This document shows, piece after piece, positions 3,868-27,597 of a stretch of 33,560 nucleotides of DNA. Position 1 is the stretch's first letter; each line of letters opens with the position of its first letter. Source of the DNA: an uncultured Candidatus Saccharibacteria bacterium (GTDB lineage: Bacteria > Patescibacteriota > Saccharimonadia > Saccharimonadales > CAIOMD01); assembly GCA_964587465.1 (NCBI GenBank), contig CAZPLH010000002.1:639-34198 (forward strand), given 5' to 3'. The notes below the pieces were generated by a model. The model was not told where the DNA came from and did no database searches. It was given only the letters and a program-made list of their open reading frames with translations. Both the position numbers and the translations under genes were made by a program.

Positions 3868-4074
3868 TTACGCGCCTAATTGCTCGGCAAGCTCCTGCTT
3901 TGCCTTCTGCAGATAATCGGTATTTGTTGGATCCATACCATATGCTTGCAAAGCCGTGATCAGTTTCGGACTAAAGCCAAGATCTGTAGGTACACCCCAA
4001 CCTTTGCGAGCAGACTCAACCGCAAAGTCAAAGTTTGCTTTCAGATCCATTGGCTCGCCAGCAATTAAAGACAT
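3868..4074 (-). CDS. Hypothetical small protein upstream of TerL
   Basis: The track ORF 3868..4098 starts at TTG. In-frame ATG at 4074 (MSLIAGEPMDLK...) lies 7 nt after the stop of the 698-aa gene. Its stop is 1 nt before the terL ATG. The position would suit a small terminase or accessory protein, but there is no motif support. Confidence 0.4.
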   Translation of the reverse strand: MSLIAGEPMDLKANFDFAVESARKGWGVPTDLGFSPKLITALQAYGMDPTNTDYLQKAKQELAEQLGA

Positions 4075-4081
4075 ATTTCTA

Positions 4082-6178
4082 TTATACCCCTCTGTCAATT
4101 ACACGAGTGCGACCAGCCGTCTTGTGTCGCTTTGGCGGGTGATGCTTGTGTAATTGGTCAACCATGTATTTGTGGACCGCTTGTGCTAGTCTACTTGATT
4201 TGATCCCGTTGATCTCAACGTCACAAAATGACTCTGCTAGAAACTCCACATAGTTGATCTCAGACTTACTGAATTTGTTTTCTTGCGACCAACTATAACC
4301 AGACAACTGCTTCGACGATTGTAGCCAAGGTATCCACTCTGGATATTCAGATACATCCGCAGGGATGTCATGCGTCACCCACAGATATGGCTCAACGACC
4401 TTAAGACGCTTCAAATGCGGATGATCTTCAAAGAAGGTATCTGTAATGATCTTGCGCAAATCCTTAGCGACACGTTCTTCACCTTGGTCCAACTCATCAT
4501 ATGTCAAAGGATCAAACTTTGGGTTCTTGTTGCCTTGCCAATCTACAGCATGCCCCATCTCATGAATCATTACACTTCGATATGGTGAAGCGCTGAAATT
4601 GGCAGGGTGCCATTGCCCATCATCCGCTCTATGTCGACGCAAAGTCATATTGACTTTGATCAGGTGATCTATGTTGATATTCAACATAGGCAAGCAACTC
4701 TGCGAGAATGAAGCGGACACCCTATCATTCGGCGGTTGATACAAATTGATCCCGCCGGGGATTCGCAGTGTTGGGTACTTCTCAAGAATGCTATCTACAC
4801 CTTCAAGACTTGACCTCAACGCTTGGACCGTTTTGTCCATCGGGTCAGCATAGCCTCCGTGCCTGATGCGTGCCTTCCTAAGTTGCTCTGGCCAGTCGCC
4901 ATTCAAATTGATAGCCGGGTTATGGTCATACCAGATGGCCATCAACTCATCTAGGTCTTTGGCATCCTTCAATGGACGACTGCGATCTGGCTTAACCTTT
5001 TCAAGCAGCTTCTCAATTTCGGACATGCGCTCCATTTTGGGCTTAACTATGCCACGGTAATACTCTCTGTTGTGCTCCTTGACTTTGGGATCTTCTGAAT
5101 CAAAGTCAAGTGAATTCATCAATTCACCAATGCTCTTTGACAACTCATCAAGCTCTTTGTGCAGCTCTCCACTTGTAGGTTTGCCGCCTCTGGCGGGTTT
5201 GGCCACTTTAGCAGGTTCAGCCGCCTTGGTAATCTTTATGCCGCCAGGCGTTTCATCAATTACCTTCTTGGCAGACGGTACAGCCTTTTTGGCGGGCACA
5301 GTTTTCTTGGCCGGCGTGGGTGTAGCCTTCTTGACTACTTTCTGTGCACCCTTGCGCTTATCATCTGGCCAATATAACTGCTCTATGCGGCCATTCTCAT
5401 CATACTCGTGGCGCAAGGCAGCATTGACAATTCCATTGCGGGTAGCTACATTCGCGCCGGGGTGTGCGCGCTTGTATTCACGCTCCAATTTGCCTGCTTC
5501 GGCAAACATCTGCTTCATATCAGTAATCTTGCCAGCCTTTTTCAAGGCCCACAATTTCTTACCGTCCGACTTAGCGTTAACGCCTTTAATGCTACCCCAC
5601 TCAGGCGGCACCTCCCTGATGGCAGATGCTACCCCGGCGAACGGTCGCCCGAGTATGATGTCAACTTCAGGGGCCGATTTACGCTTGCGCACACTTATTT
5701 GCGTGACCAGCAATTTAGTGTCTTTGTTGAGTGTAACCTCATATTCGCTGGGCCAGCCCTCTTGAAATTCTGCTTTGCCTTTGCCTAGCCACTCAGCAGT
5801 AATTGTAAAGTGATACATGTCATTGCCAGGCTCTTGGAATCTGCGCGTTACTTCTCTGCGCTTAGTCCAATGTCGTCCCATATTGCCACGACCATAAGAG
5901 TCCCAAGCATTGGGATCTGACAAATGCAAGAACTTTGCTAAGTCCCTGCCCAATTGTTTATCTTTGCCATCATCATAGCCCAATTTGACAAGGCGGTCAA
6001 TTCTGAATGCCAGCGCTTCATCCATGCGCTCATCCAAAATGCTTAGACCGCGATACAACTCAGTTGTCTTTGGCTTTACCCTGGTTACGCGCCGTACCGG
6101 CTTGACCCCTTTGGGCCTACGGCTAGCAGTATGCGCAAACCTACCCCGCCAGTCTCGGGTGTAAGTGCGGGTGGCCAT
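4082..6178 (-). CDS. Large multidomain protein: ADP-ribosyltransferase-like N-domain, Lys/Pro/Ala-rich linker, HExxH zincin metallopeptidase C-domain (polyvalent-protein-like)
   Basis: 698 aa. N-terminus has TELYRGLSI (Arg), GRHWTKRREVTRRF (S/T position) and PSEYEVTLNKDTKLLV (ExE) in R-S-E ART order. The centre is KKATPTPAKKTVPAKKAVPSAKK..AEPAKVAKPARGGKP. The C-terminus has SVMIHEMGHAVDW with a downstream VEFLAESF. Confidence 0.55.
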   Translation of the reverse strand: MATRTYTRDWRGRFAHTASRRPKGVKPVRRVTRVKPKTTELYRGLSILDERMDEALAFRIDRLVKLGYDDGKDKQLGRDLAKFLHLSDPNAWDSYGRGNMGRHWTKRREVTRRFQEPGNDMYHFTITAEWLGKGKAEFQEGWPSEYEVTLNKDTKLLVTQISVRKRKSAPEVDIILGRPFAGVASAIREVPPEWGSIKGVNAKSDGKKLWALKKAGKITDMKQMFAEAGKLEREYKRAHPGANVATRNGIVNAALRHEYDENGRIEQLYWPDDKRKGAQKVVKKATPTPAKKTVPAKKAVPSAKKVIDETPGGIKITKAAEPAKVAKPARGGKPTSGELHKELDELSKSIGELMNSLDFDSEDPKVKEHNREYYRGIVKPKMERMSEIEKLLEKVKPDRSRPLKDAKDLDELMAIWYDHNPAINLNGDWPEQLRKARIRHGGYADPMDKTVQALRSSLEGVDSILEKYPTLRIPGGINLYQPPNDRVSASFSQSCLPMLNINIDHLIKVNMTLRRHRADDGQWHPANFSASPYRSVMIHEMGHAVDWQGNKNPKFDPLTYDELDQGEERVAKDLRKIITDTFFEDHPHLKRLKVVEPYLWVTHDIPADVSEYPEWIPWLQSSKQLSGYSWSQENKFSKSEINYVEFLAESFCDVEINGIKSSRLAQAVHKYMVDQLHKHHPPKRHKTAGRTRVIDRGV

Positions 6179-6184
6179 TTTGGC

Positions 6185-6946
6185 TTAGCCAATGCGGGCA
6201 ATGATCGCGCCGCCAGAGCCGCCAGCAGCGCCATTTCCTCCAGCACCTCCTGGGGCACCGCCTCCGCCACCATCACCGCCAGCACCGGAATTGGCAGCAG
6301 CATTCGTGGCGCTACCACCAGAAGTTGTTCCAGTATGCCCAGCAGTAGACGCATTAGACCCAGCAACACCGCCCAAAGTAGCATTTGCGGGCGCACCACC
6401 ACCACCGCCGCGACCAGACATCCCGATGCCAGCGCCTCCATTGATGCCGACTGAGCTGCTGGCGGTACCACCACAGCCTGGTTGATTGGAACTGCTTGTA
6501 GTAGCTCCAGCTGCTCGCAAACCATACACGCCGGCCACAACCTGTGAAGTTGAATTTGCGGCGCCATTGCTGCCGAAACTACCGCCGCTCGCAGTTAGCA
6601 AAGAGCCCACCGTGGTGTCACCGCCGTGCGCCGAGCCAGCACCAGCATTGCCGGTTGCGCCAGATGATGCTGCTCCACCAGTTCCGCCAGCTCCGCCAGC
6701 GCCTATAGTAACTGTATGTGTATCTCCAGCAGTCAACGTAACAATAGTTTCAGCAAACTGGCCAGCGCCAGCGCCACCGCCACCAACTTGGGTGGCTACA
6801 CCACCAGTCAAAGCTGCTGCTCCACCGCCACCACCTCCGCCACCGCCACCCCATGCACTAATGCGATAAGTGCCAGTGGCCGGTACAGTATAAACGCCGC
6901 TAGCCGTAAACAGTTGCGCCGAGAATAGTGGATACTTGTGCGACAT
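6185..6946 (-). CDS. Glycine-rich-domain protein (tail-fibre / host-recognition associated)
   Basis: ATG at 6946 shares one nucleotide with the tailspike stop (TAATG); the track start at 6961 is TTG. MSHKYPLFSAQLFTASGVYTVPATGTYRISAWGGGGGGGGGG... is followed by repeated GGxG/GAGG blocks. This pattern is seen in glycine-rich domains of phage fibre proteins. Confidence 0.6.
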   Translation of the reverse strand: MSHKYPLFSAQLFTASGVYTVPATGTYRISAWGGGGGGGGGGAAALTGGVATQVGGGGAGAGQFAETIVTLTAGDTHTVTIGAGGAGGTGGAASSGATGNAGAGSAHGGDTTVGSLLTASGGSFGSNGAANSTSQVVAGVYGLRAAGATTSSSNQPGCGGTASSSVGINGGAGIGMSGRGGGGGAPANATLGGVAGSNASTAGHTGTTSGGSATNAAANSGAGGDGGGGGAPGGAGGNGAAGGSGGAIIARIG

Positions 6947-9330
6947 TAGAATACCACCCAATTTGATCCATCGGAAATCACTTCAGCAGACGAACCTGGC
7001 GGTAACACCAAAGTCGTTGCTCCATCAATAGTTTGTGACGATGTAGTAGCGATTGTCTTGTCAGTCGTATGCACATTCTTGAATCTGTACATATACGGGT
7101 TGTTAGCCGCTGTAGGCAAAGTCGGTACACCGGACGCGCCGATCAGCACCACCCGATCACGGTCAGCAGCCAAAGTCACCGCGCTAGTCACCGATTGTGT
7201 CAGCCGACTGACATTGGTATTGCTACGGCCTATCCACTTTGTGCCGTCACTAGTTAATACCAAACTGCCATAAGCGCTGTTGACATAAGTATCACCAACG
7301 ATGGTGTCTGAACCATTTGGGGTAGCCGTGATGGTCCTTGCGACAGATGCGGATCCAGATCCATCCATAAGAACAATTTCAGTTCCCGCGGCTTGCGCTG
7401 AAACTGCCGGCAAAGCAGCGGTCCTGGCAGCTGTAAGGCTAGACCAGATGATATTGGTATCGTGAACACATACCGTTGCATTAACATCTGCTACCAGACG
7501 AGTTGACTTTGCCTTACGCCTATTTGTGCCCTTGCCGGTAAAGTCAGAAGGGATAGGCAAAATGGAGGAAGCACGAGAATCACGGAATGCATAAAACAAG
7601 GTCTGCCCGGAACTAGGCGCGCCACGAACAACCAAAGACTCCCAAGTAATGTCTGGTGCTGACGACCCGCTATTGAGATCCAAAATGGCAGCGCCCAAAT
7701 CCCGCCCCAGGGTGTTGGGGTAAGTGCCACCAACGCTAGATGAAGCATCCGCCCAATGTGACAGACCACGAATATTGATCGACCCGCGGTTCACGCAGTT
7801 GAGCACAATCGCGTTGAGACCCTGCGGCACACTGTAAACGCCATTGAAAGTCACCGAGTCAAGACGGCTTTCCTTGTAGACGTTAGTGCCAAACTCATTT
7901 TTGAGGTTCGTGATTGTGATTGGCGCACCATACGTTCCGCCAGGCCCCTCAATGCGTAACAATCCACCTGCATTTTGGTCGCCGGAAAATGAGTCAAAGT
8001 GAACAGGTTCTTCACCCCACACCTTGTATCTGATACCCGGTGCGCCAAGACGCTGAACAGCAACAGTAGTGCCAGATGCAGTCGCAACCTTATTGACAGT
8101 GACTGTATTAGCACCAGAGTCAACCGCTGTAATAATTGTATCTGGTGGCAAATTCAAGCTAGTGACAATATCGCTGTTGGCCAACCCCGTCGTGCTTGAC
8201 ACGGCCGTGAGCACGGGCGATCCGTTGGTGGTGTTGCAGGTGAAGTCCTTGCGCTTCTCGTACCCGCACGCGAACGCGAGGAGGTACTTGAATGTGCCGG
8301 GCAGCGAACCACCAGCGAAGTTGAACCCCTCTTCGGCCCAGCCGAGCGCCGACACGTAGTCGATCTGGCCGCCATCTATGACGGTGACTGGGTTACCGGA
8401 TGTAACATTTACAAAGTTAATCCCCTTGCCAGCGGTGTTATCAACATCCTGTAGGATGGCAAAGCCATGCAATTTGCCATACCACGTATTATCCCACGCC
8501 CCAAGCGGGTCTGGGCAACGGAACCCATCAACATTCTGGTCCCACATCTGGTGGAAGACAGTACCGCCAGCATCCTCAGCGGCATCCCCCTTTGCGCCGT
8601 AGATGATGTCGTGACTAACAAAGTTCTCTGCTACACCCTTAATCGTTCCACGACGCGGCAACGTAATTGTGCCAGAGAACAAATATCCGCCAGCAGGGAA
8701 AATGGCAGTGCGCGACAACTTTTTACCACGACCACCGAAGCTGAGGTCGACACAAAGAGCATTCATGGCAGCGTGGTTATCGGTGCCAAATACCGCATAA
8801 ACATTGGTAACTGTTGTCGCACACGCCGCAGCAAGCACCGCCTTGCCAGATGACACACCCGTAATGGTAGTCTTCAGATTCGCGCCACCAGCAGCCGCGC
8901 CATTAACCTTGACCACCTTACCGACATCCGCCGCGGTGAAAGTGTAGCCAGTCACCGTCAGTTGTGTCGGGTTTGTAGTTGATGACATTGACGCCGCAGT
9001 GGTTGTGTACCGATCATTCTTGATGTTGTAAGGTGCTTGCGTCGGGTCAATATACAGCGGGTTGCGAGCAATCAATTTGCCAGCATTAATCGTCGTCTCG
9101 CGGCCATCAATTTCAGCATTGTATCCGCCCGCGGCATCAAGTGCACTACGACCATCCGCTTGTGTAGCCGCAGTCATCACGCTTCTACCCGCAGCACCAG
9201 TGCCTGGTAGTGTAGTAGCATTCAGATTGTTTATGGCATCAACTACCCCGTTGATAGCGGCAGCTACGGCATTGACAGCGGCGGCATCATAACTGTCTAC
9301 ACCATCAACATAATTACTCTTCAAGACCAT
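6946..9330 (-). CDS. Tailspike / tail fibre with pectate-lyase-like right-handed beta-helix (putative depolymerase)
   Basis: 794 aa. FGTDNHAAMNALCVD...AIFPAGGYLFSGTITLPRRGTIKGV resembles the start of Pectate_lyase_3-type beta-helices. The remainder is beta-rich and Gly/Asn/Thr/Val-rich. There are two related C-terminal modules ending SDGTKW and SDGSNW. Confidence 0.7.
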   Translation of the reverse strand: MVLKSNYVDGVDSYDAAAVNAVAAAINGVVDAINNLNATTLPGTGAAGRSVMTAATQADGRSALDAAGGYNAEIDGRETTINAGKLIARNPLYIDPTQAPYNIKNDRYTTTAASMSSTTNPTQLTVTGYTFTAADVGKVVKVNGAAAGGANLKTTITGVSSGKAVLAAACATTVTNVYAVFGTDNHAAMNALCVDLSFGGRGKKLSRTAIFPAGGYLFSGTITLPRRGTIKGVAENFVSHDIIYGAKGDAAEDAGGTVFHQMWDQNVDGFRCPDPLGAWDNTWYGKLHGFAILQDVDNTAGKGINFVNVTSGNPVTVIDGGQIDYVSALGWAEEGFNFAGGSLPGTFKYLLAFACGYEKRKDFTCNTTNGSPVLTAVSSTTGLANSDIVTSLNLPPDTIITAVDSGANTVTVNKVATASGTTVAVQRLGAPGIRYKVWGEEPVHFDSFSGDQNAGGLLRIEGPGGTYGAPITITNLKNEFGTNVYKESRLDSVTFNGVYSVPQGLNAIVLNCVNRGSINIRGLSHWADASSSVGGTYPNTLGRDLGAAILDLNSGSSAPDITWESLVVRGAPSSGQTLFYAFRDSRASSILPIPSDFTGKGTNRRKAKSTRLVADVNATVCVHDTNIIWSSLTAARTAALPAVSAQAAGTEIVLMDGSGSASVARTITATPNGSDTIVGDTYVNSAYGSLVLTSDGTKWIGRSNTNVSRLTQSVTSAVTLAADRDRVVLIGASGVPTLPTAANNPYMYRFKNVHTTDKTIATTSSQTIDGATTLVLPPGSSAEVISDGSNWVVF

Positions 9331-11329: not shown

Positions 11330-11512
11330 CTAAATGGTCATGTTGTTAAGCTCGCAATTGCGCTTAGCAGCCTCAAGGGTGTTGAAGCCTTCCGTGCTTG
11401 CGCCAGTAATCTTGCCATTGGCCGCGCGAATATGCCAACGCCACTCACCAGCCTTGTCTTTGTAGAACGCAGGCCCAGGCGGTGCACTTTCACCAGGGTT
11501 AACCGTTGTCAT
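11330..11512 (-). CDS. YegP-like (DUF1508) single-domain protein
   Basis: The internal ATG at 11512 has GGAG 9 nt upstream. MTTVNPGESAPPGPAFYKDKAGEWRWHIRAANGKITGASTEGFNTLEAAKRNCELNNMTI matches the DUF1508 pattern (F..ykd.aGe.R..l.A.NG..i..S.gy....a). The track ORF extends to 11581, which would overlap the upstream gene by 83 nt. Confidence 0.8.
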   Translation of the reverse strand: MTTVNPGESAPPGPAFYKDKAGEWRWHIRAANGKITGASTEGFNTLEAAKRNCELNNMTI

Positions 11513-12488
11513 TTTCGTGCTCCACTTCTTCTGCGTCCTGGTCTTGTGTATCTGCCAAACCGAAGCTAATGCGGTTACCAACTAGTTCAGCGGTAATTTC
11601 TGTATCTGGCCCAAATGCATCTGCGCCAGTTGCCTTTGCGATCTTGCGTCGCTTCTTGGCATCCTGAATACGCTTGCGGTTGTCTTTGCGCGCCGCTACC
11701 AGATCCTGTTGACTTTGTAGCGCATTGGTCAAGGCGTCATGTTCCTGTTGGTGCTGCTCATGGTCGTGCGTAGCAGTCGAACTTGAGTTTGCCGGCTCAT
11801 CATAAGTTGGCGCTGGCGGGGCATATGTAATCCGTGGATCACCCGGTGCAAAATCACGTAGTGGTGGTGTTACCTGGTTCTCATCTACCCCGCCAGCGTT
11901 GTCTTTGTTCTCCTGGCGACTATCAAAGCCAGGATCATTGGTAGCAAATTCGCCGTCGCCAATTACCTCTGCGTCAATTACACCTGCCCGCAACGCCCGA
12001 CTTTGCTCCTGGCTGATTCTGGCAATGCCAGTCATCATTTCTTCCCATGGCGCCTTGGTGACAGTTACGGCTACACGGTCAGGTGTCTTACCGGCAACGC
12101 GCTCGAAAATGTACTTGGCTGCTTCCAGTCTATCACGTGGCTCATTGGTTGGGTCCTCAGCTACACTTACCATGACATCGATCATGTGGTCTAGCTTCTC
12201 ACGTAGCCTGTGGTTGAATCTGGCTTCGTGCTCAACTACCATTGCGTCGTAAATGTCACGCGGAATTGGCTCAGTCTTGTTCTTGGTACGTGGTATGCGG
12301 CCATTCTTGTCGCGGCATTTTCCGGCCCGCAATTCCTCGTCGTCCAAGTCCGCCACGGTGATGTAGCCGTGGTTGAATAGCTCTTGGCGGCTCATGCCGC
12401 GCATTTTGATCTCGCGCTCAAATTCTTCTTCAGCGGCAGACTTCACCTGCTGGAACCACGGCTTAAGTGCCATTACAAAGCACCCCAC
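11499..12488 (-). CDS. Hypothetical protein, possible small-terminase-like DNA-binding protein
   Basis: 329 aa, GTG at 12488 or ATG at 12473. NEPRDRLEAAKYIFERVAGKTPDRV resembles the conserved helix found in many TerS-type phage proteins. The C-terminal half is acidic and Gln-rich. Confidence 0.45.
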   Translation of the reverse strand: MGCFVMALKPWFQQVKSAAEEEFEREIKMRGMSRQELFNHGYITVADLDDEELRAGKCRDKNGRIPRTKNKTEPIPRDIYDAMVVEHEARFNHRLREKLDHMIDVMVSVAEDPTNEPRDRLEAAKYIFERVAGKTPDRVAVTVTKAPWEEMMTGIARISQEQSRALRAGVIDAEVIGDGEFATNDPGFDSRQENKDNAGGVDENQVTPPLRDFAPGDPRITYAPPAPTYDEPANSSSTATHDHEQHQQEHDALTNALQSQQDLVAARKDNRKRIQDAKKRRKIAKATGADAFGPDTEITAELVGNRISFGLADTQDQDAEEVEHENDNG

Positions 12489-24096: not shown

Positions 24097-24360
24097 TTAC
24101 TGCCCTTCTGTTTTCATCATACTTGCGTCTGCCTCAGACATATACGCCCACTCCTTATAGATCAACTCCTCAACTGGTATGGCAATACACTCCTTGTTCT
24201 CACCATTTACGGCGATCACGGTCTTGACCGGCTCAATGCCAATCTGGGCCAGGCTTTTCAGCACCGACTGGTATGGCGGCTTTCTGGGCGTACCGCCACC
24301 AAATACACCTCCCAAGGTATTAGCGACCCGCTTTGCGGCATCTGCTTGCGGATTAGTCAT
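24097..24360 (-). CDS. Hypothetical protein
   Basis: 87-aa ORF. Its start overlaps the DnaE-core stop by 8 nt. Confidence 0.5.
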   Translation of the reverse strand: MTNPQADAAKRVANTLGGVFGGGTPRKPPYQSVLKSLAQIGIEPVKTVIAVNGENKECIAIPVEELIYKEWAYMSEADASMMKTEGQ

Positions 24361-26686
24361 CTTGCATCACCCACATATCTCTCACTTGAATGCTTACGCC
24401 AAAGCCATCTCGCTTGACGCCTTTAAACAGAACTATGTCTTTGCCCAAATTGATACTCTCAATTTGCTCTTGTAGTTTGGGGAAGGTCCAACGGTTTACG
24501 CGGCAATAGCATTCGTCGTCCCCATCATCGACACATTTCAGCACGCAACCCTTTAACAAGTCTGGGTCTCTCATATTCGCCAGGATCTCATCGACATCCT
24601 TGCCGGTCCTGGCACGCTCATCCTCAATGTAGTCCTTGTATTCCCGAATCTGCGGGATACCGGCCCAGACAACTTCATGCGTTCCCTCACGGGGAATGTC
24701 GTCGCTAGTCTCATGTGTGTAGTTGGGCAGATAGTACCGGTGACTGTTATCTAGTAACCATTTTCGGAAAGACACCATTCGGTTACTAATCACCTTGAGA
24801 CCAAATGGATCAGGGTTATCGACAAAGTCAGCAATCTTGTTAATTGTCGACGGGCCAATGCCTTTAATCTCCAAAAGGTCATCCCAATCCGGCAACGGGC
24901 CTGACCAATCCATATCCTCAAGGTAATTGACTATAGCAGTAGCAGTTTTAGGGCCGATACCGGGAATTTGCCTGAACCCGGCGCATACGGTATTAGTATC
25001 CGGCGCGGTCCAATTCTCGTCGCTATCAAGCAAATCGGGCGGCGCAACCGTAATGCCATGTCGCATAGCATCTTTGAGCAGCCGATTTCGGCGGGTTTCA
25101 TCCGGCGTCTTGCGCAATTGCGCTGCGTAAAATGCTGTAGGGTGGTGTACTTTCAACCACATCTGCCAGAAAGCTAGCATGCTATAACTGATACAATGCG
25201 CCACGTTGAAAGAGTATGTGGCTGAGGTAGCCATGAAGCGCCAAATTCGTCGCGCTTGCGCCGGCGTGCACCCGTGTTGGCTACACGCATTCTCCTCAAA
25301 TTCCTTGTACATCTCATCAAATTGGGCCTCACCCAACTTCTGCGAAATGATCTGCCGAATTGCGTGGATCTTGGTCATTGGAAACCCGCCCAAGTCGCGG
25401 ATGATCCGTAGTACCTGCTCCTGATAGATTATCTGGCCGTAAGTCCATCCAGCATATTCATCCACAATCGGGTGGTAGTGCTCTATGGTTTGTCGATTAT
25501 GCTTGACATCGATATATGCAGCTGCCATCCCCGAGAACAATGGCCCTGGACGCGATAAAGCGTTGATGTCGGCGAGGTGCTGAAAGTGATCGGGCTTGAC
25601 ATCCCGACAGACAAGACGTGTTGCCCTACCCTCAAATTGAAAGATGCCGGTGACGTCATTATTACGAAACGCTTCCAGTGTTCTGGTGTCCGTAAGCGGT
25701 ACACGATACAAGTCCTCCAGATCCATGTCGATCATATTCAAAGCGTGGCCGATCATACCCATGGTAGCTAGGCCCAGGATATCCTGTTTCAGGAAGCCAA
25801 CATATGCGGCATCCTTTTTGTCATAGGCAATTACGGTTATGTCGCGGCCATCTTTGTTTCGCGTATATGTAGCGCAGAAGTCATTGATTGGCGCGTTAGC
25901 AATTACCAGGCCGGCTGCGTGTACGCCCATGCCCCGATAGTTGCCCTCAAGCTTTATGGCGTTACCTAGTTCGGGGTAGCGTTCAAGTACTTCACGAGCC
26001 TTTGGGAAGGTTGCAAACGTATCTTCTAGCGAGTCGCTTAGCCGCGAATCTCCACCGGATCGTTCGATGATCAGGCCCTTGACAGTTTCAACTTCCCACT
26101 TCGGTATCTGGTAAACCCGCGCCACGTCATCGAGACTGTTCTTACCACGATAGCGAGTGAAGTTGGCAATATGCCCAACGTTGCCTGCCCCATATTTGCT
26201 GGCTGCATATTCAAATACCTCGTGACGGCGCTCATCATCAAAGTCAAGGTCGATGTCCGGCGCTTCTGTTCGCGTTGGGTCGATGAATCGCTCAAAGAGC
26301 ATATTCGGGTGCTGTAGCGGGTCCACTTCTGTGATGCGCAGAAGGTAGCAAACCAAACTGGCAGCCGCGCTACCACGCCCCGGTCCAACTGGTATCTTGT
26401 TATCCTTGGCCCAGCGGACAATATCGCTGGTGACCATGAAGTAGTCAACAAAGTTCTTGCTTATGATTAGTTCTAGCTCATATTCGGCGCGCTCAATGTA
26501 TTCCTGCTTGCGCTTCACCATATCCGTGTTGCCAGTACGGTGTACGCGAAACTGCCAACCGAAGTTCATCCACTTTCGCAGCAACGCGATTGCTTCGGGG
26601 CTGGCGGGGTTAACCAATGCATTTTCAAGCCCTGTTGAGTATGCGCCAACCAGTTTGGCTACCCTGGCCGCTACGTCGTCAGCCAT
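24353..26686 (-). CDS. dnaE: DNA polymerase III alpha (DnaE-type) polymerase core: palm/thumb/fingers, HhH, OB; lacks a PHP domain
   Basis: 777 aa. YELELIISKNFVDYFMVTSDIVRWAKDNKIPVGPGRGSAAASLVCYLLRITEVDP is the canonical DnaE palm entry. HhH-like GIGPKTATAIV and IKGIGPSTINKI. OB-like C-terminus. Confidence 0.9.
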   Translation of the reverse strand: MADDVAARVAKLVGAYSTGLENALVNPASPEAIALLRKWMNFGWQFRVHRTGNTDMVKRKQEYIERAEYELELIISKNFVDYFMVTSDIVRWAKDNKIPVGPGRGSAAASLVCYLLRITEVDPLQHPNMLFERFIDPTRTEAPDIDLDFDDERRHEVFEYAASKYGAGNVGHIANFTRYRGKNSLDDVARVYQIPKWEVETVKGLIIERSGGDSRLSDSLEDTFATFPKAREVLERYPELGNAIKLEGNYRGMGVHAAGLVIANAPINDFCATYTRNKDGRDITVIAYDKKDAAYVGFLKQDILGLATMGMIGHALNMIDMDLEDLYRVPLTDTRTLEAFRNNDVTGIFQFEGRATRLVCRDVKPDHFQHLADINALSRPGPLFSGMAAAYIDVKHNRQTIEHYHPIVDEYAGWTYGQIIYQEQVLRIIRDLGGFPMTKIHAIRQIISQKLGEAQFDEMYKEFEENACSQHGCTPAQARRIWRFMATSATYSFNVAHCISYSMLAFWQMWLKVHHPTAFYAAQLRKTPDETRRNRLLKDAMRHGITVAPPDLLDSDENWTAPDTNTVCAGFRQIPGIGPKTATAIVNYLEDMDWSGPLPDWDDLLEIKGIGPSTINKIADFVDNPDPFGLKVISNRMVSFRKWLLDNSHRYYLPNYTHETSDDIPREGTHEVVWAGIPQIREYKDYIEDERARTGKDVDEILANMRDPDLLKGCVLKCVDDGDDECYCRVNRWTFPKLQEQIESINLGKDIVLFKGVKRDGFGVSIQVRDMWVMQDD

Positions 26687-27597
26687 GGCTCATAGTCCCG
26701 TTCATCGATGGGGTACTTAATTGGTTCCACCTTAGGCAATACCACATTACAGCGGTCGGCGATTAGTGATGTATTCTCCAAGGCCTGAACAGCCGCATCC
26801 TCTGAAAGACCTGTTCCCACAAGATCCCGGTGGACTCGCTCATCGGACTCTGGTATGTCAAGGGTGATATCATACTCCCAGGACGCTTCAGTTTGGGACA
26901 CAGTACTGCTACGGTGAGACGCATGAAGAATCTTTTGCATCTCGTTTTGGTTAGGAGTGCAGTAATGGCAATCGCTCGTTGCAGCAAGACCCGCTCCGGT
27001 ATCTGCTGATAGCCTTTCATGCGCGACAGCGAGCGTGCGAGTACGGTCCAGTCCAGGAAATCTCTGGCACTCAATGTAGAATCTATCACCAAATACCTTC
27101 TGGTACCATCGTACAAGCCCAATGGCATTTTCGTAGCTGTCGGCAGTAACCGTATCTCGCTTGTCACCAAAGTATTTTCCACCCAGCAACGTGCACGAGA
27201 GCGCGCTGTCGGCACATCCCGATAAGATGATGAGGCCTTCACTGTATTCCTCCAACCGATCCAGGTGTATGGTTGGCCATCTGTAGAAATCCCGCCAGGA
27301 TTGGCTCACGAGCTTGTTCAAATTGGCATACCCAATTTGGTTCATAGCCAGAATGGTCTGATGAGTTTTACGATTTTGCGACGGCGGCGCAATATAGCCC
27401 TCAACGCCGAATATGGGCTTGATGTCAAATTCAGCCGCGGCTTTCTCAAGCATGACGTGACTGCTAACATTACCATGTTCGGTCAGAGCCATGGCTTTCA
27501 TGCCATAGGCTGCCGCGGTCATTACGTGCTCCCGCGGCAGCCCAAAACCGTCGCCATAGCTCATGGTTGAGTGATGGTGAAGGCTGACATATTGCAT
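26671..27597 (-). CDS. dnaE: Stand-alone PHP domain corresponding to the N-terminus of DnaE
   Basis: 308 aa. MQYVSLHHHSTMSYGDGFGLPREHV...ALTEHGNVSSH...IFGVEGYI is the PHP metal-binding pattern. It ends in TAG at 26671, 16 nt inside the next ORF, which is in the -1 frame. Confidence 0.9.
   Translation of the reverse strand: MQYVSLHHHSTMSYGDGFGLPREHVMTAAAYGMKAMALTEHGNVSSHVMLEKAAAEFDIKPIFGVEGYIAPPSQNRKTHQTILAMNQIGYANLNKLVSQSWRDFYRWPTIHLDRLEEYSEGLIILSGCADSALSCTLLGGKYFGDKRDTVTADSYENAIGLVRWYQKVFGDRFYIECQRFPGLDRTRTLAVAHERLSADTGAGLAATSDCHYCTPNQNEMQKILHASHRSSTVSQTEASWEYDITLDIPESDERVHRDLVGTGLSEDAAVQALENTSLIADRCNVVLPKVEPIKYPIDERDYEPWLTT

Follow-up and report, generated by a model that had tools for sequence, protein, structure and literature searches.

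A gene next to terL encodes a probable member of a modular polyvalent protein family, with a zincin-like C-terminal domain and a very rare N-terminal payload

The window analysed here, a stretch of 33,560 nucleotides from a contig assigned to an uncultured Candidatus Saccharibacteria bacterium, encodes on its minus strand a protein of 698 amino acids (aa), referred to below as the target (open reading frame, ORF, 4082..6178, ATG start). By the features that can be tested on sequence, the target is a polyvalent protein, a kind already known: it carries unrelated domains on one chain (a zincin-like metallopeptidase domain, a separate N-terminal domain, a helical domain called PPxW and a coiled coil), and it is encoded among virion and packaging genes, adjoining those of the terminase large subunit (terL) and the portal in an order that is kept in three related contigs (L002-L004). 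Beyond this, we consider it rather probable that the target belongs to a modular family of actinophage type whose members would be packaged in the phage head, processed by the zincin and armed with an enzymatic payload. For the payload itself, a divergent R-S-E-type ADP-ribosyltransferase (ART) is the leading candidate, one that we hold with slightly less belief than doubt.

A preliminary description of this DNA had reported the ORF without stating its strand. The ORF is real, and the motifs named in that description were all placed correctly: LYRG at aa 41-44 (R43), GRHWT at 101-105, EYE at 145-147, HEMGH at 539-543 and EFLAE at 645-649. The database entry for the target itself, P0001, starts at M52 (647 aa), a gene call that leaves out a conserved N-terminal motif and the start of the N-terminal domain. 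As this motif (aa 6-15) lies upstream of M52, the longer start at 6178 is better supported.

Pfam and NCBIfam recognised nothing on the whole target. When its N-terminal and C-terminal halves were used as separate queries in word-indexed protein searches, neither gave a match, so that even P0002, the full-length orthologue (878 aa; 64% identity in the N-terminal half and 26% in the C-terminal half), was missed. P0001 and P0002 were the sole results of the full-length word-indexed search, which was probably swamped by the low-complexity linker. A two-sequence profile of the target and P0002, run against 1.84 billion representatives, gave 171 matches at E <= 0.001. The target was cut into segments, and hidden Markov models (HMMs) of these were mapped onto 150 listed of the 171 matches plus the window protein, 151 sequences in all; counts over this set include both the window protein and P0001, which is the same gene in a shorter call. 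The segments and motifs of the target are the following.

4082..6178, minus strand: the target, a modular polyvalent-type phage protein of 698 aa, with an orthologue and profile matches
6065..6178, minus strand: aa 1-38, N-terminal motif (Y-T-RDWRGRFA) and basic stretch; motif in 23 of 151 sequences
5624..6064, minus strand: aa 39-185, orphan payload, 'ART-like' domain (the N-domain); homologues in P0002 and in P0082 (aa 317-462)
6047..6058, minus strand: LYRG (R43), candidate ART Arg motif; invariant in 3 of 3 homologues
5864..5872, minus strand: H103-W104-T105, at the STS position of the preliminary description; invariant in 3 of 3, and not an STS
5738..5746, minus strand: E145-Y-E147, candidate ExE on a beta strand; ExE invariant in 3 of 3
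5354..5623, minus strand: aa 186-275, PPxW helical domain (PPEW..IKG.NAK.DG..LW..KKAG...); 46 copies in 33 of 151 sequences
5174..5353, minus strand: aa 276-335, Lys/Pro/Ala-rich linker; 25% K, 18% A, 13% P, net charge +13
5237..5260, minus strand: IDETPGGI in the linker, a conserved [VI]-D-K-T-[PK]-G-G-[IM] motif; 14 of 150 library proteins and the target
4856..5173, minus strand: aa 336-441, helical/coiled-coil region with a KPDxSR motif; 17 sequences including the target
4118..4855, minus strand: aa 442-687, zincin-like metallopeptidase domain; 84 copies in 60 of 151 sequences
4550..4564, minus strand: H539-E-M-G-H543 (HExxH); invariant in 21 of 21 aligned copies
4232..4246, minus strand: E645-F-L-A-E649, helix with the candidate third zinc ligand; both Glu invariant in 21 of 21

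The C-terminal third of the target is supported as a zincin-like metallopeptidase domain. In 21 divergent copies of the domain, the sole invariant residues were H539, E540, H543, W618, Y628, E645 and E649 (target numbering), and either E645 or E649 is a candidate for the third zinc ligand. When a profile of the domain was compared with the PDB, the best match was myroilysin (5czw, E 3e-5), followed by oligopeptidase A, anthrax lethal factor, matrix metalloproteinases, snake-venom metalloproteinases and serralysins; all of the matches were zinc proteases, aligned on a beta strand and the HExxH helix. No Pfam family covers the domain, single members of which weakly match ATLF, M10, M91 and M43, and the PHROG family phrog_17987, labelled 'head maturation protease', matches aa 511-677 of the target (E 6e-6). 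In the full-length AlphaFold model, the predicted local distance difference test (pLDDT) score was below 50 across this region. The domain occurs in up to four copies per protein, in proteins of 1000-5900 aa. Therefore, the zincin call that had been made from HExxH and a downstream Glu is supported at the profile level, by the invariance of HExxH, E645 and E649 together with the matches to solved zinc proteases. The metallopeptidase (MPTase) of polyvalent proteins has been described in like terms, with HExxH on one helix and Glu on the next (Iyer, Burroughs, Anand, de Souza and Aravind 2017, PMC5512222).

The family to which this domain belongs has the general layout N-terminal motif, PPxW domain, Lys/Pro/Ala-rich linker, variable inserts, coiled coil and C-terminal zincin domain. 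The order N-terminal motif, PPxW, payload, coil and zincin was found in P0004-P0007, P0025, P0030, P0034 and P0042; in the target, the payload (aa 39-185) stands after the N-terminal motif and ahead of the PPxW domain. A basic stretch (aa 16-38 in the target, net charge +9) comes after the motif Y-[VK]-RD-x-x-G-[RKQ]-F-A, which forms the extreme N-terminus of all its carriers, the target included, and may be a head-targeting or portal-binding signal. Its carriers, among them P0002, P0004-P0007, P0009, P0011, P0012, P0015, P0025, P0030 and P0059, otherwise have very different architectures. The PPxW domain, of about 75 aa, is helical, with a pLDDT of about 70 in an otherwise poor full-length model (pLDDT 42, from a 2-sequence alignment), and in profile it is similar to a single repeat of the kinesin-light-chain/TPR-like kind (PDB 4y6c, summed E 7.5e-6, the single repeats being weak). 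In large ART proteins there are two PPxW copies, the second of which is the last recognised module upstream of the C-terminal ART.

Linkers rich in Lys, Pro and Ala are also present in P0004, P0005, P0006 and P0018. The 'histone-H1-like' character ascribed to the linker in the preliminary description holds for its composition and not for an H1 domain, as Pfam gave no linker-histone match; a relationship to the winged-helix linker histones H1/H5 was rejected for the same reason, the likeness being one of composition alone. The DKTPGGI-type motif, with which the linker ends in its carriers, may serve for strand addition or mark a site of proteolytic processing. The KPDxSR coil region, with helices at pLDDT 60-70, always precedes the C-terminal domain where that domain exists, and P0012 has the coil without it.

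The payloads of the relatives are diverse, and ARTs recur among them. Canonical PF03496 ARTs were recognised by Pfam in P0013 (E 1e-20), P0059 (2e-16), P0051 (6e-10) and P0128 (also PF01129), and P0017 and P0023 matched PF03496 weakly (E 8e-04, 19.2 bits, below the 23.4-bit cut-off). The layout of P0013 is PPxW-ART-ART-coil-zincin and that of P0025 is N-terminal motif-PPxW-ART-coil-zincin, the ART of the latter matching the family ART HMM (E 6e-18) and being invisible to Pfam. Therefore, Pfam can miss divergent ARTs of the target's family. In both proteins an ART and the zincin domain share one chain, and the same combination had already been described among polyvalent proteins (PMC5512222), so that its apparent novelty in the preliminary description, which recognised no characterised phage protein of this composition, does not hold. 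Other modules found in relatives were weak, sub-threshold HipA_C (HipA-like kinase) regions, DUF7178 and a WXG100-like domain.

P0082 (2172 aa) carries an N-domain copy, two zincin copies, DUF7178 and a weak ParB_N match (E 0.006, below the Pfam cut-off), and its gene lies directly after terS-terL-portal in locus L005. A MuF domain in P0082 was not statistically confirmed (E 0.16 to the MuF HMM, with the C...HPxCxC tail alone aligned). The same zincin is fused C-terminally to MuF (12 proteins, and gp12 of the mycobacteriophage Send513), to VG15 (PF25310) and to Phage_min_cap2 (PF06152), and co-occurrence of MuF with the N-terminal motif or PPxW was seen in 0 of 12. The interpretation of the target as a polyvalent protein, already put forward from its motifs, is thus supported by homology and synteny, with ART, HipA-like, ParB_N and MuF/VG15/minor-capsid modules in its relatives.

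The genes around the target are all in its own direction and are transcribed in the order 794-aa gene, 258-aa gene, target, 76-aa ORF, terL and portal.

6946-9330, minus strand: 794-aa protein, upstream of the target
6185-6961, minus strand: 258-aa glycine-rich protein, upstream of the target; Pfam Gly_rich_2, E 3e-7
3868..4098, minus strand: 76-aa ORF that overlaps the target stop and the terL start; no family match, and a 76-aa gene in the same place in L002-L004
2256..3866, minus strand: terminase large subunit (terL); phrog_2, E 1e-32, and 61% identity to the terL of Mycobacterium phage Onyinye
594..2207, minus strand: portal protein; phrog_64, E 1e-41

In the contigs that carry P0002 (L002-L004), the target homologue stands between a 116-aa gene, with fibre-like genes ahead of it, and a 76-aa gene that precedes terL and portal, and the portal gene is followed by three small genes, a Prok-JAB gene, a separate 301-aa MuF gene, scaffold and capsid. 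The separate MuF proteins of these relatives matched the local MuF HMM with E 4e-61 and 4e-53. The possibility that the target is the phage's own MuF protein was rejected: it gave no PF04233 match, and its relatives carry a separate MuF.

Cultured phages show related arrangements. The target's terL, closest to that of Onyinye, is 51-57% identical to the terL of Nocardia and cluster D phages. Two genes before terL, Onyinye encodes gp16 (YP_010649265.1, 1340 aa, annotated 'ADP-ribosyltransferase'), whose N-terminus reads VKRDNDGKFAKKAG. Its layout is N-terminal motif-PPxW-...-PPxW-ART (PPxW E 1e-31 and 1e-28; ART E 3e-82), where the RD-x-x-GKFA motif was read by eye, the HMM of the N-terminal motif giving no match at E <= 0.01. 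In the cluster D phage Thoth, gp6 and gp7 (a VIP2-like ART, PF03496 E 5e-12) lie directly before terL, and portal, JAB and MuF follow downstream. Judged by gene order and homology, the target fills a conserved 'pre-terminase' slot that in cultured relatives holds ART-bearing modular proteins. When 50,697 phage genomes were searched by tblastn, the C-terminal 220 aa alone were matched, at about 24% identity, by gp12 of Send513-like mycobacteriophages; the MuF domain of Send513 gp12 (PF04233, aa 167-275) itself scores below the Pfam cut-off (E 4.6e-05, 24.6 vs 29.6 bits). A megablast search of the 8.7-kb neighbourhood against phage genomes gave no match.

The N-domain is known from three sequences among the matches listed, namely the target, P0002 and P0082 (30% identity for the P0082 copy), and searches of viral, metagenome and genome contigs with alignments A2 and A3 and the P0082 copy as queries found no further copies. 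The 36 positions invariant in the three homologues include L-Y-R43-G, G-x-H103-W-T105 and F-x-x-G-W-x-x-E145-x-E147-x-x-L, R43, HWT and ExE being kept down to 30% identity, and in both low-confidence AlphaFold models the domain consists of helices followed by about six beta strands. The aromatic-R-G with which strand 1 of an ART ends is present at the motif level as L41-Y-R43-G, and the [QE]-x-E with its hydrophobic strand or hairpin is present as E145-x-E147-V-T-L. For all three homologues, the best local match to the family ART HMM placed the catalytic-Glu strand on ExE, in one register. What puts a divergent ART at the head of the candidates is the conservation of R43, HWT and ExE, the pattern of strands and the fact that relatives carry ART payloads in the same slot.

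Several results weigh against this assignment. The STS motif is absent, with HWT in its place in all three homologues, and S87 upstream is Pro in P0002. No ART was recognised by sequence searches of Pfam, NCBIfam and the PDB with the whole protein, the N-domain, a 59-aa ExE fragment or profiles of two and three sequences. The match of the ExE strand to the family ART HMM covers about 20 residues and was not significant (shuffle p = 0.02-0.14), nor was the hhalign comparison with ten aligned ARTs of the family, in which 21 residues at the ExE strand were matched (P = 0.014); in global mode, hhalign gave no signal between the N-domain and ART. With a cluster-D-type ART sub-alignment, hhalign gave P = 0.35 in another register (VTRRF vs the ART VRRF), so motif matching is fragile here. 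Subthreshold matches of the N-domain HMM showed no enrichment in ART domains. The AlphaFold model of the N-domain on the 3-sequence alignment was unusable (pLDDT 47), and Foldseek on this low-confidence model gave no match at E < 0.1, the matches to MHC, Rad50 and Hcp at E > 0.1 being meaningless. Finally, P0015, which has no N-domain, keeps 'SLYRGKGIS' between its basic stretch and PPxW (aa ~36-75), either as the scar of an N-domain deletion or with LYRG as a scaffold element, as may be the case; this remnant makes the assignment of LYRG to the domain ambiguous. Of the ART domain proposed earlier, then, the conservation of R43, HWT and ExE stands, and the STS motif and a profile match to known ART families do not.

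The main competing explanation keeps the target as a polyvalent, head-associated protein and makes its payload something other than an ART, such as another enzyme (for example a nucleotidyltransferase of Pol-beta type or an RNase that needs no metal) or a non-catalytic binder. We regard it as a serious possibility, though not the expected outcome. It is favoured by the failed or unclear ART profile and structure tests, by the missing STS and by the diversity of payloads in the family, which includes HipA-like kinase regions, ParB_N and a 180-aa insert in P0002. Read by eye, G132-x-G134...S144-E145-x-E147-V-T-L also fits the nucleotidyltransferase minimum G[SG]-x9-13-[DE]h[DE]h, and the BECR RNases of polyvalent proteins share the layout of helix and then strands (PMC5512222). 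The conservation of the R, the aromatic-rich loop and the ExE-hydrophobic strand-hairpin in the order and spacing of an ART argues in the other direction, as do the family-HMM match at the ExE strand in all three homologues and the recurrence of ART as the payload at the equivalent locus of relatives. Pfam, moreover, gave no PBECR or nucleotidyltransferase match either; the Pfam PBECR RNases in particular were rejected on this ground and because the conserved residues are not where PBECR places them, as that family is described in PMC5512222.

The extra domain of P0002, of about 180 aa (aa ~326-505; alignment A1 columns 345-520), has no counterpart in the target. Over 70 free-standing proteins of about 200 aa, as well as the N-terminus of P0003, are homologous to it, and no Pfam family matches it; a DxE...D...HxxxxD pattern, read by eye, suggests a DEDDh exonuclease.

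In the mechanism that we favour, the target would be made along with the packaging proteins, its reading frame being coupled to those of the 76-aa ORF and terL, a co-expression inferred from the overlap of these ORFs. It would enter the procapsid through its constant front end (N-terminal motif and PPxW), which would do the job done elsewhere by MuF, VG15 or minor-capsid modules; it must be set against this step that the target is without a MuF domain and its relatives encode a separate MuF, so that incorporation into the head is argued by analogy. Packaging in the virion and injection with the DNA, likewise proposed by analogy, would bring the target into the host together with the DNA. The zincin would most likely cut its own polypeptide, in the linker or in the DKTPGGI region, and so free the payload, or would cut a host target, and the payload would most likely be an enzyme acting early on host macromolecules. 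Zincin MPTases are described as the commonest domain of polyvalent proteins and as their proposed processors, and ART and MPTase on one chain have been described (PMC5512222). For ARTs whose genes neighbour those of terminase and portal, packaging in the head is predicted (PMC9503650), and VIP2-MuF fusions of Microbacterium phages are predicted virion components (PMC7302621).

A different role for the zincin, as a 'head maturation protease' acting on scaffold, capsid or minor head proteins, would make the target a head-morphogenesis factor. PHROG 17987 and the RefSeq record of Send513 gp12 label the homologous domain in this way, the fusion partners of the domain (MuF, VG15 and minor capsid protein 2) are without exception proteins of head assembly, and related loci show no other recognised prohead protease, bar the Prok-JAB gene. 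The label, however, is a putative one, and the GenBank records of the Send513 gp12 gene say 'MuF-like minor capsid protein'. The phages related to the target have a scaffolding protein; P22, SPP1 and other phages that assemble their heads on a scaffold do without a prohead protease. As two to four zincin copies occur in proteins of 1000-5900 aa that also carry ART and WXG100-like toxin modules, processing of effectors fits better than maturation of the capsid, and we consider the morphogenetic role improbable. Still less probable is that the target is not packaged at all and acts as a cytoplasmic host-takeover protein, late or early, as a toxin, or as a DNA-binding accessory of packaging. The target has no experimentally defined MuF, portal or capsid-targeting domain, its two strongly basic tracts could bind DNA, and no role has been established for the VIP2-like toxins of actinophages (PMC7302621). 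Against this stand the conserved order of target, 76-aa gene, terL and portal, with the Onyinye and Thoth counterparts also just before terL, the presence of the same domains in a gene directly after the portal in L005, and the separate terS-like gene of the window at 11499-12488.

That gene (minus strand) encodes a 329-aa protein that matches phrog_10899, 'terminase small subunit' (E 7e-35). It lies about 7.6 kb from terL, with the fibre-like genes and the target between them, and Onyinye has a similar separation (gp4 vs gp18). The location 'between the tail-fibre genes and terL' given in the preliminary description is right on the terL side (phrog_2), whereas the 794-aa and 258-aa genes upstream are loosely tail-fibre-like (Gly_rich_2, E 3e-7; PHROG 'tail fiber assembly', E 2e-4). 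The 258-aa Gly_rich_2 gene gives rise to several long ORFs that are spurious, in its other frames and on the opposite strand, including plus-strand 6131-6454, 6192-6485 and 6486-6869; in relatives, the Gly_rich_2 region belongs to a 939-aa beta-helix protein. The window, with a G+C content of about 51%, also encodes a split family-A DNA polymerase, a primase/helicase, a thymidylate synthase and a polynucleotide-kinase-like protein, and no tRNA genes were found in it. The polymerase consists of two overlapping ORFs (24353-26686 and 26671-27597, minus strand), the 308-aa ORF matching the N-terminal part of phrog_405 and the 777-aa ORF matching the remainder of that family.

The novelty is modest and consists of a zincin family and a front-end module that lie outside Pfam, and of a very rare payload domain. 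A stronger claim, that aa 39-185 found a new and very rare ART clade, that the N-terminal motif with PPxW is a MuF-independent address tag for loading cargo into the heads of actinophages, or both, seems to us unlikely, yet worth stating; in such a clade, G-x-H-W-T in place of the STS NAD-binding motif would imply an altered cofactor or target chemistry. If the proposed mechanism is true, the target would be one more case of phage enzymes loaded into the head and injected ahead of gene expression. The zincin recurs on four different head-associated front ends, which makes it a good candidate for the protease long proposed to let polyvalent proteins process themselves. The N-terminal motif and PPxW could serve as a transferable capsid-loading tag, and the N-domain is a candidate enzyme without recognisable relatives. 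Current views are not overturned; the existing catalogue is extended.

Compared with solved zincins, the target aligns with myroilysin, oligopeptidase A and lethal factor over the strand and the HExxH helix, some 60 residues only, and differs from them in that a large insert separates the HExxH helix from the Glu helix, which follows some 100 residues further on. The analogy with T4 Alt, drawn in the preliminary description, is a functional one, no sequence relationship between the two being found. T4 Alt uses a capsid-targeting sequence and a prohead protease, neither of which is evident for the target. Alt is a head-packed enzyme that is injected with the DNA (PMC5512222; PMC9503650).

Among cultured phages, Onyinye gp16 is like the target in its slot two genes before terL, its N-terminal motif and its PPxW, and Onyinye has a distant terS, as the window does, and downstream a separate MuF-type minor head protein, scaffold and capsid, as in the target's relatives. 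Unlike the target, gp16 contains repeats, a region like HipA and, at its C-terminus, a canonical ART of PF03496 type, and it has no zincin and no N-domain homologue. The C-terminal 230 aa of Send513 gp12 (YP_009614237.1, 856 aa) are homologous to the target zincin (24% identity, pairwise E 5e-10; motifs HEFGH...ELVAESFTDVE), whereas its front end is MuF and its gene lies after the portal, with five small genes between, and not before terL. Thoth gp6 and gp7 (QOP65969.1 and QOP65970.1) are upstream of terL like the target, and gp6 shares part of the PPxW region with P0013; in contrast to the target, Thoth spreads the functions over two genes and has a canonical ART (STE/STS and SEI motifs) and no zincin.

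From the described set of polyvalent proteins, the target differs in being short and in having one putative payload only, and no Pfam family, MPTase-PolyVal, ART-PolyVal and the LPD families among them, matches its zincin, PPxW, N-terminal motif or N-domain. Like the polyvalent proteins of Iyer et al. (PMC5512222), it has unrelated domains on one chain with a zincin MPTase as the hub, and its gene lies, as theirs do, among virion and packaging genes; polyvalent proteins are predicted to be packaged in the head and injected. In the same paper, ART is given as the commonest macromolecule-modifying partner in polyvalent proteins.

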